Positions 28,801 to 31,800 of a stretch of DNA of 64,000 nt are shown one piece after another (position 1 is the first letter of the stretch; every line of letters starts with the position of its first letter). The stretch is from Escherichia coli. Its GTDB lineage: Bacteria > Pseudomonadota > Gammaproteobacteria > Enterobacterales > Enterobacteriaceae. The position numbers are program-made. Location: NCBI RefSeq assembly GCF_030013205.1, contig NZ_CP122648.1; one strand, given 5' to 3'.

Positions 28801-31800
28801 AATGATTGATGACTAAGGTTATAATGGTGTTACCAAGGTATTTACCCATCATTGGTGGGGCTGAAGTTCAATGTAGCCGCCTCATCCGCGAATTTAATAA
28901 AACTGGTAAAGTTAACATAGTGAGCATTGTTACAAGAAGAGTAAGCAATACCTTGGAAAAAAAAGAATACATTGATAATATACCTGTAACGAGAATCCCA
29001 CCAAGCGGAACTGGAATGCTCGTTGAATACATTTTTTGCTTATTATTGATATTCTATCTTTTGCTTAATCATAAGAAGTATGATGTAATTCATTGCCACG
29101 CTTCCTCTATTTTTGGTCTTTCTTGTTCCTTAGTTGGATTTCTACTCAAAAAGAAAGTGATTATTAAGATCTCTACTAATGGTGAAATTGGCTCAATGCA
29201 GAGTTCGTCTATAAAAAGATGTATTTCACGGTTTCTATCAAAATATTGTACCTATATAGCGTTAAATTCTGAGGGCTATTCTGAAGTAAATTGTTATTTA
29301 TCTAAAGCTCATAAATGTATTATTCCCAATGGAATTGATTTCAATATCAACCATGAAAAAAATTTGGAATTGGCCACTGTGATTAGAAAAAAATTACATA
29401 ATATGTATGGGGAAGATATATACATATGTGTTTTTGTCGGTCGTTTTGTTACAAGAAAAGGGATAAGGGAAATATATGAATGTGGTGCAGACCTGACTGC
29501 TAATGGTAAAAAAATCATATTCGTGTTAATTGGTGATTCGGAATTACAACGTGATGCTATCAATTTCGAATATGATCATCTTCATAATTTCTATATCGCT
29601 GGTAGGAAAAAAAATGTGTTCCCCTATTTGATTGCTGGAGATTTATTCATTTCACCATCACACAAAGAAGGTTTGCCAAACACTGTCCTTGAAGCTCTTT
29701 CCGTTGGCAAGGTTTGTATTCTTTCAGATATACTTCCACATCAAGAGATTGCTTATGAACATCCTAAAAACGTCATACTTTTTAAAACAGGAGACGCTCA
29801 GGAGTTGAAGCAAACTATAATAAATTATCTGGAATTAAATCCTCATAAATCAAGTTTGCATAGTTATGTGCAGATTGAGGACAATGTCTTATTAGACAAA
29901 TATTCTATCAGTTGTATAGCGGAACAATATTGTCTACTTTACAAGGACAAGTCTAATGCCTCGTGATGATTATAAAATATATATATCTATAGTTTCCCAT
30001 AATCACGGTGAGTTAATAAAGAATTTAGATTGTATTAAGAATTTATCTCAAGAGTTCATAGTGGTTATTAAGAATAACTGTTATGATGAAGTATTATTGG
30101 ACTATTTAAAAGATAGCAATGCCTATCTCATCAATGAAGAATATAATAAAGGATTTGGCTATAATAATAATGTCGTTTTTAGTTATTGTCGTTTGCAACT
30201 AAATATGCAACCTTCCGATTATTTTATAGTACTTAATCCAGATTTGGTCATCAAAAACTCGTCTATCAAAGAGTTGGTTAACAAAATGCATTGCAGCAAT
30301 GTCAAAGCTGCAACTATTAACCTTTACCTAGATGATAAACTTCATGACTATGATTATTCTGTGAGGCATTTTCCCCGCTTATATGACTTTATTTTATCTT
30401 TAGTATTAGGTAAGAATAAAACTAAAATAGACAAATCAATAATTACCAATCCAACAGAAGTAGATTGGTGTGCAGGTTCTTTTATGGCTTTAAGTAGTCA
30501 TGTTTATCAATCCATTCAAGGATTTGATACAGGTTATTTTATGTATTGCGAGGATATCGATCTTTGTTTTCGTTTAAAGAAAAAAATATTGGAATAATTT
30601 ATTATCCTGAGATTACAGGCATTCACAAAGCTCAGCATAAAAATAGAAGTTTTTTTTCGAAACATTTTATTTGGCATGTTAAAAGTGTATTCAGATTTAT
30701 GTTTGCTAAAAACGGGTTAATTAGGAATAAGTCCAATATTTGTCACTAAAGATTGATTTGTGCTTAGAAAGAAAAATTAAACCAGAGTCTTTTAGATATC
30801 TTTTAAAGCAGTATATGCTCTATCCCCCCCTGACAGGAGTAAACAATGTCAAAGCAACAGATCGGCGTCGTCGGTATGGCAGTGATGGGGCGCAACCTTG
30901 CGCTCAATATCGAAAGCCGTGGTTATACCGTCTCTATTTTCAACCGTTCCCGTGAGAAAACGGAAGAAGTGATTGCCGAAAATCCGGGCAAGAAACTGGT
31001 TCCTTACTATACGGTGAAAGAATTTGTTGAATCTCTGGAAACGCCTCGTCGCATCCTGTTAATGGTGAAAGCAGGTGCAGGCACGGATGCTGCTATTGAT
31101 TCTCTCAAGCCATACCTCGATAAAGGTGACATCATCATTGATGGCGGTAACACCTTCTTCCAGGATACTATCCGTCGTAACCGTGAGCTTTCTGCCGAAG
31201 GCTTTAACTTCATTGGTACCGGTGTCTCCGGTGGTGAAGAAGGCGCGCTGAAAGGTCCTTCCATTATGCCTGGTGGGCAGAAAGAAGCCTATGAACTGGT
31301 TGCACCGATCCTGACCAAAATCGCCGCAGTAGCTGAAGACGGTGAGCCATGCGTTACCTATATTGGTGCCGATGGTGCAGGTCACTATGTGAAGATGGTT
31401 CACAACGGTATTGAATACGGCGATATGCAGCTGATTGCTGAAGCCTATTCTCTGCTTAAAGGTGGCCTGAATCTTTCCAACGAAGAACTGGCGCAGACGT
31501 TTACCGAGTGGAATAACGGTGAACTGAGCAGCTACCTGATCGACATCACCAAAGATATCTTCACCAAAAAAGATGAAGACGGTAACTACCTAGTTGATGT
31601 GATTCTGGATGAAGCAGCAAACAAAGGTACGGGCAAATGGACCAGCCAGAGCGCGCTGGATCTCGGAGAACCGCTGTCGCTGATTACCGAGTCTGTGTTT
31701 GCACGTTATATCTCTTCTCTGAAAGATCAGCGCGTTGCCGCATCTAAAGTTCTCTCTGGTCCGCAAGCTCAGTCAGCAGGCGACAAGGCTGAGTTCATCG

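Follow-up and report, generated by a model that had tools for sequence, protein, structure and literature searches.

The cytosine run before gnd in Escherichia coli O139 as a probable part of the native translation-initiation region

The window analysed here is a stretch of 64,000 nucleotides from Escherichia coli (assembly GCF_030013205.1, contig NZ_CP122648.1), and the element under study is a run of seven cytosines (C7) just upstream of gnd, the gene for 6-phosphogluconate dehydrogenase (6PGD). Read directly from the window sequence, the run occupies positions 30824-30830 on the + strand. It is probably a part of the native gnd translation-initiation region, and neither an insertion nor a switch built for the purpose. 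By alignment with related leaders, C7 is the O139 allele of a conserved 7-nt linker in which both A's have been replaced by C. The length polymorphism of the run is probably generic, as for any G.C run of 6-8 bp, and near-neutral.

The original prediction had placed a C7 tract upstream of the gnd Shine-Dalgarno (SD) sequence, where it is indeed found. The distance of about 10 nt given there has to be corrected: 4 nt separate the end of the run from the SD AGGAG, and 15 nt separate it from the ATG. The window reads gcagtatatgctctat, then CCCCCCC, tgac, AGGAG, taaaca and ATG. The run and its neighbours on the 3' side are arranged as follows.

30831..30845, + strand: conserved gnd translation-initiation core TGACAGGAGTAAACA, with the SD AGGAG at 30835-30839
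30846..32252, + strand: gnd (gndA), open reading frame (ORF) for an NADP-dependent 6PGD of 468 aa, as annotated at the identical locus of O139:H1 W13-16

A set of 5,426 complete E. coli genomes was searched. The stretch (G)ACAGGAG of the core, together with the gnd start, was present in 4,351 of them, and in a 34-sequence cross-species alignment it was invariant or nearly so. The run is conspicuous in its surroundings: the G + C content steps up there, from 28.7% in the 868 nt upstream to 50.3% in gnd. CCCCCCC or GGGGGGG matched the window seven times, in four places, against 4.65 ± 2.67 in shuffled sequences, indicating no enrichment. In 50 kb, only two G/C runs of at least 7 were present, compared with 28 A/T runs.

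To place the run among related leaders, one genome per species was scanned, yielding 120 Enterobacterales loci. These shared the order cTGAGTTAACATc...CCACATTtCAAG, a hairpin CCGCGC...GCGCGG, TGA, CCACACC, TGACAGGAGTATGTA and ATG. In Enterobacteriaceae the leader consisted of a box TGAGTTAACAT, the covarying hairpin, TGA, a C/A-rich linker of 7 nt, TGACAGGAG, a further 6-7 nt and the ATG. The seven positions of the run were CCACACC in most of the 120 species representatives. CCACACC or CACACC followed by TGACAGGAG was kept even in species with unrelated DNA further upstream; Pseudescherichia, Kluyvera and Salmonella diarizonae, for example, retained CACACC despite their differing upstream DNA. 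Each of the four base pairs predicted for the hairpin had compensatory changes (CG/UA and GC/AU/UA alternatives), and visibly different stems were also seen (CTGCA/TGCAG and GTCGGGG/CCCCGAC).

Several linker forms lie between CCACACC and the pure run. K-12 carries the interspecies form gatCACACCtgacaggagtatgta, with CACACC at the position of the run. The Escherichia-type allele, recognized by GTAAACA before the ATG, has CCACCCC, for example in E. whittamii and many E. coli, and most E. coli carry CCACCCC(C) at the linker. Intermediate forms were CCACCCC and CCACCCCC. Pure C7 was also found on canonical flanks: as ggtgaCCCCCCC behind the canonical hairpin flank in a metagenome contig (L101), and in O112ab:H8, where the hairpin is followed by TAA and then C7.

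The proposal that the run is simply the native gnd leader is therefore right for the most part. The run adjoins the TGACAGGAG-N6/7-ATG block of gnd on its 5' side, and relatives across Enterobacteriaceae have a C/A-rich linker of 7 nt at these positions. The upstream box TGAGTTAACAT and the covarying hairpin are gone in O139, in which just the 3' core is retained. As an observation of its own, the succession of box TGAGTTAACAT, CCACATTtCAAG and covarying hairpin is a conserved enterobacterial gnd upstream architecture (loci L147-L266) with no Rfam match; the Rfam scan found no family in the leader region of the window or in four canonical leaders. Many E. coli serogroups, O139 included, are without the box and the hairpin. 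TAACAT within the conserved box was considered as the canonical -10 and was not confirmed, the lenient promoter scan preferring other hexamers in O157 and Citrobacter.

The run also marks the edge of serotype-specific DNA. A query carrying 84 nt of upstream flank matched across the run in only 19 of the complete genomes. In about 4,450 others the alignment began at query positions 85-93, at or just after the first C, and similarity to other E. coli gnd loci accordingly starts at window positions 30824-30832. A spread of fetched E. coli matches had unrelated upstream DNA fused to a common C(n)TGACAGGAGTAAACAATG. Judged from these junctions, the run sits at the innermost boundary of the O-antigen DNA replacement. 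This agrees with the known behaviour of galF-gnd O-antigen clusters, which are low in G + C and horizontally exchanged, gnd often travelling with them (PMC5359238; PMC7685785).

The locus is the O-antigen/gnd region of E. coli O139 and shares 100% identity with O139:H1 W13-16 and with porcine O139 strains. From position 30700 onwards, 15.7 kb were identical to ETEC4070, ETEC4071 and ETEC4079. Two features lie on the 5' side of the run.

29956..30749, + strand: last gene of the O139 O-antigen set, for a wbbL-like family-2 glycosyltransferase, with a frameshift at A7 (30580-30586)
30750..30823, + strand: O139-specific AT-rich spacer from the wbbL-like gene to the C run, matched upstream of the run in the same 19 genomes only

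When compared with other gnd leaders, the spacer at 30750-30823 had neither the TGAGTTAACAT box nor the leader hairpin. The upstream gene had been described as a frameshifted wbbL, which is right in substance. Its product, a family-2 glycosyltransferase, is 34-53% identical in amino acids to the two WbbL fragments of K-12, and the gene is broken in the window by A7, where O139:H1 W13-16 has A8 and an intact product of 264 aa. A8 and the intact 264-aa gene also occurred in EC556 and K_EC180, and the annotation of ETEC4067 lists this intact protein as well. The window shares A7 with ETEC1748, ETEC6333 and ETEC6334. After the C run, this is the second homopolymer that is polymorphic in the O139 clone. 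The frameshift could abolish or alter the O antigen.

Across E. coli, the run differs widely in length. A query of C12 plus the SD block returned 4,353 RefSeq records, from which 60 were sampled evenly down the ranking; the number of aligned C's was 0-8, some of the 7s and 8s being CCACCCC(C) bridged over one mismatch. Exact pure-run lengths were obtained from 120 E. coli metagenome contigs: five had no C, nine had one, three had two, 22 had three, 40 had four, 34 had five, five had six and two had seven. The mode was thus C4-C5, and C7 was rare. One and the same flank (...cccgcagacaa) carried C8, CAC5 or C4. C4 and C5 on otherwise identical tails were found in 3 of the 25 multi-member flank groups, which consist mostly of Illumina/SPAdes metagenome contigs, and in one flank group both lengths occurred on both hairpin-loop haplotypes.

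Shorter runs were more stable. One C5 haplotype was queried with three run lengths. With C5 it matched 243 RefSeq records at ≥99%, and with C6 none. With C4, a single match among those listed was perfect over the full length, and no more than 25 records reached ≥99%, a figure to be read as a range only, since this query also caught related haplotypes through a 32-nt right-hand match. Variability climbs steeply with run length, which fits the exponential dependence of the E. coli indel rate on homopolymer length (PMC8510543). In that study 8-bp G.C runs in leuP/Q/V/T were hot spots. The O139 tract resembles them as a G.C run of 7-8 bp, and the resemblance fits a nearly fixed C5 and a polymorphic C7; it differs in that the hot spots were seen in mismatch-repair-defective laboratory lines, and the variation here is natural and among assemblies. 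In the literature searched, no earlier description of a poly-C polymorphism at gnd came to light, and in the part read, an Escherichia homopolymer survey (PMC8928963) does not mention gnd.

Within O139, the junction was present in 19 genomes, with C7 in 12, C8 in three (EC556, EC571 and EC581, all Japanese) and C6 in four (K_EC180, ETEC1748, ETEC4069 and ETEC6334). The sequences of four loci confirmed C6 and C8. Of the 17 clonal O139 genomes, 4 had C6, 10 had C7 and 3 had C8. A 2-kb alignment of seven O139 sequences contained four variable sites, namely the gnd run, the A7/A8 glycosyltransferase run and two single-nucleotide polymorphisms (SNPs). The O139 indel fell exactly in the run, and run length was homoplastic relative to the other variable sites. 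None of the 120 metagenome contigs had an O139 flank; their short-read lengths are those of other E. coli flanks.

As a control we used a second C7 run of the window (46177-46183), located in the yeeY-yoeI intergenic region. In 14 of the 17 clonal genomes the gnd run by itself accounted for the net length differences over 15.7 kb, and the remaining three were read directly. ETEC4067 and ETEC1701 had C6 at the control run. K_EC180 had two additional deletions, C4 to C3 with a frameshift of yoeB, and T6 to T5; they lie at window-equivalent positions 44137 and 46248 and resemble assembly errors, which lowers the confidence in the C6 of its gnd run. In the three directly read genomes, no variation was seen at the five A/T runs of 7 that this stretch contains. 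Overall, C7 runs were variable in 9 of 34 run-by-genome cells, compared with 0 of 85 for A/T runs of 7. The gnd run varied in 7/17 genomes and the control in 2/17, a difference that was not significant. The control run varies too, and these data do not show a special instability of the gnd run. As both vary in the same assemblies, the variation is either generic to C7 runs or partly technical.

Over 50 kb, ETEC6333 and ETEC6334 differed at four sites only. All four were located in the O-antigen/gnd segment, and three were differences in homopolymer length. ETEC6333 has T7 in wzx, annotated as frameshifted, where ETEC6334 and the window (26896) have T8. It also has A7 in a family-4 glycosyltransferase gene, annotated with a shorter product, where ETEC6334 and the window (28957) have A8.

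Regarding expression, the run lies in intergenic DNA before the SD, outside any ORF, any -35/-10 spacer and the SD-ATG spacer. A change in its length alters neither the reading frame nor the -35/-10 or SD-start spacing, the candidate -10 being upstream of the tract, and C7 is at the low end of the tract lengths that may slip frequently. A strict sigma-70 and terminator scan of 30500-31000 detected no promoter on the + strand and no terminator. The best O139 candidate in a lenient scan was TTTAGA (30791-30796), 17 nt and TATGCT (30814-30819), which is weak, with 8/12 consensus positions; its predicted +1 is at about 30826, inside the C run. As a positive control, the same scan recovered the K-12 gnd promoter TTTATA-17-TATACT with a 57-nt leader, close to the 56 nt that we take to be the length of the K-12 leader.

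RNA folding was applied to the leader and 280 nt of gnd, with the run set to 2-10 C's and with three choices of 5' end. In these predictions the run was unpaired, the minimum free energy was constant, and the unpaired probabilities of SD and AUG shifted by no more than about 0.09 for n = 2-10. A UCCU anti-SD inside gnd is described in PMC6733600, which cites Carter-Muenchau and Wolf 1989. By duplex prediction the window has a candidate for it.

31053..31059, + strand: ATCCTGT in gnd codons 70-72, candidate internal anti-SD (ICS) for the growth-rate control of gnd, its TCCTGT complementary to ACAGGA of the SD region

The candidate ICS was predicted to pair with ACAGGA, leaving the C run outside the pairing. 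The CACCTG of K-12 is perfectly complementary to CAGGTG at 31072-31077 (gnd codons ~76-78), and the C7 allele loses one of these pairs. RNAduplex energies against the ICS region spread by up to about 4 kcal/mol across variants and by about 0.7 among C5-C8; these values involve large loops and were not relied on. The comparison of gnd upstream regions thus bears out one half of the original prediction, as the tract is not invariant, with 0-8 C's across the species and C6-C8 in O139, in agreement with slippage. Its other half, that slippage modulates expression, finds no support: the run is 5' of the SD, folding is flat from 2 to 10 C's, and the control C7 run varies as well.

The following history would account for these data. 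An O-antigen cluster replacement may have brought foreign DNA of low G + C content up to the linker. O139 would have retained only the linker and the SD block and lost the canonical box and hairpin, and the change of both linker A's to C would have given a pure C7. Transcription of gnd in O139 would presumably depend on a weak local promoter or on read-through out of the O-antigen operon. A homopolymer linker would slip during replication, at a rate rising steeply with its length. Such slippage could produce C6, C7 and C8 in O139, C8, CAC5 and C4 on a shared flank, and the recurrent C4/C5 differences elsewhere. One-base changes would shift only the length of the leader. Because the run is 5' of the SD and predicted to be single-stranded, we infer that such single-base changes most likely have little or no effect on gnd expression.

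Some points limit this reading or weigh against it. Its neutrality is a prediction from the position of the run and from thermodynamic folding. The conservation of CCACACC across genera argues for constraint, and pure-C alleles and length changes may not be wholly neutral. The predicted +1 of the candidate promoter is inside the run, and at such a place a change of length could have an effect. Individual C6 calls may be basecalling errors, and assembly error may account for some of the length variation in O139.

If this last point is taken to its end, the run would be stably C7 in the clone and the O139 differences would all be errors of homopolymer basecalling or polishing. We regard this as unlikely. 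Three of the four differences between ETEC6333 and ETEC6334 are homopolymer lengths, two of which frameshift wzx and the glycosyltransferase gene; the other C7 run is C6 in ETEC4067 and ETEC1701; and K_EC180 carries further deletions in a C4 run, with a frameshift of yoeB, and in a T6 run, all of which would be expected from such errors. Yet C8 was found in three separate Japanese isolates, the five A/T runs of 7 gave zero net indels in 17 genomes, C4/C5 differences on the same flank occurred in short-read metagenome assemblies, and multi-base lineage differences (C8 vs C4 on one flank) exceed errors of 1 nt. The agreement of the three C8 isolates, the C4/C5 variants from short reads and the lineage differences of several bases speak for real slippage as an additional source of variation. 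It is quite improbable, in our view, that the run is a simple sequence repeat that tunes expression, in which slippage would alter leader length or the transcription start site relative to the SD and give graded, not on/off, 6PGD levels between O139 sublineages. Such tuning would suit the three length alleles among near-identical O139 genomes, homoplastic against two neighbouring polymorphisms, the +1 that the TTTAGA-17-TATGCT candidate places within the run, the conservation of the linker across genera, which implies function, and the full complementarity of the K-12-type CACCTG to CAGGTG in gnd, degraded in the C7 allele. Against it, the run is at none of the positions known for strong 1-nt effects (-35/-10 spacer, SD-AUG spacer, ORF), folding revealed no length effect, natural E. 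coli tolerate 0-8 C's before an expressed housekeeping gene, and the control run also varies (2/17 vs 7/17, not significant).

The original prediction had also pointed to gnd flanks as recombination hotspots, and the run might then be a signal that sets the 3' crossover of O-antigen cluster exchange. In O139 homology does break off precisely at the run, and in several other serogroups it ends no more than a few bases away. Many serogroups, however, break further upstream, past the hairpin or the conserved box, and O-antigen switches usually take gnd and downstream genes too (PMC5359238), so that crossovers are not confined to this point. No Chi or known recombinase site was present in the sequence read, and selection for a working ribosome-binding region explains the boundary more simply, making a recombination signal very improbable. 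We give hardly any credence to a further scenario for O139 and other serogroups without the canonical promoter and hairpin, in which the makeshift promoter TTTAGA-17-TATGCT would start gnd transcription inside the C run, and RNA polymerase slippage or run length would set the output. If true, it would couple pentose-phosphate flux to the supply of CTP or to a heritable run length.

Compared with the K-12 gnd leader and its ICS control, O139 has the same gene and SD block TGACAGGAG, TCCTGT in codons 70-72 of the window gnd, and the run at the position of the K-12 CACACC. It differs in having C7 in place of CACACC, in which the longest pure run is 2, and in being without the 5' hairpin and the region that holds the K-12 promoter, about 57 nt upstream. 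Homopolymer tracts in phase variation usually set promoter geometry or RNA processing and have an on/off phenotype. Among mucosal pathogens, such phase variation in promoters or 5' untranslated regions is known from Bordetella pertussis (PMC1891110) and from intergenic repeats of Haemophilus influenzae (PMC12721329). The O139 tract is like them an intergenic mononucleotide tract near a start site, with a length probably altered by slippage. Tracts of that kind are usually longer; that of O139 has 6-8 nt, is 5' of a housekeeping-gene SD and has no predicted structural effect.

Reiterative transcription in E. coli is known from the nucleotide-pool genes pyrBI, codBA and upp, at T/A runs (U or A in the RNA). 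The likeness to O139, a homopolymer at +1, would hold if the candidate promoter is real, and is purely speculative.

The direct importance of the run is small. The last ~22 nt before the gnd ATG, that is, the linker and the SD block, are the sole upstream part kept by every O-antigen replacement. Because the canonical hairpin and box are lost in many serogroups, models of gnd regulation built on K-12 may not carry over to these serogroups and O139. The conserved C/A-rich linker also illustrates how A to C substitutions generate a slippage-prone homopolymer. For practical work, the run is a length-polymorphic site in a region widely used for gnd and O-group typing and for assembly comparison, and outbreak analyses based on SNPs or indels should mask it or interpret it cautiously.

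The longest G/C homopolymer in the window is elsewhere, a G10 run (C10 on the coding strand) at 55824-55833. It is located in the 4Fe-4S dicluster gene at the PduS position of a propanediol-utilisation cluster, a gene annotated as 'frameshifted' in ETEC4070. Slippage at G10 could have inactivated this gene.
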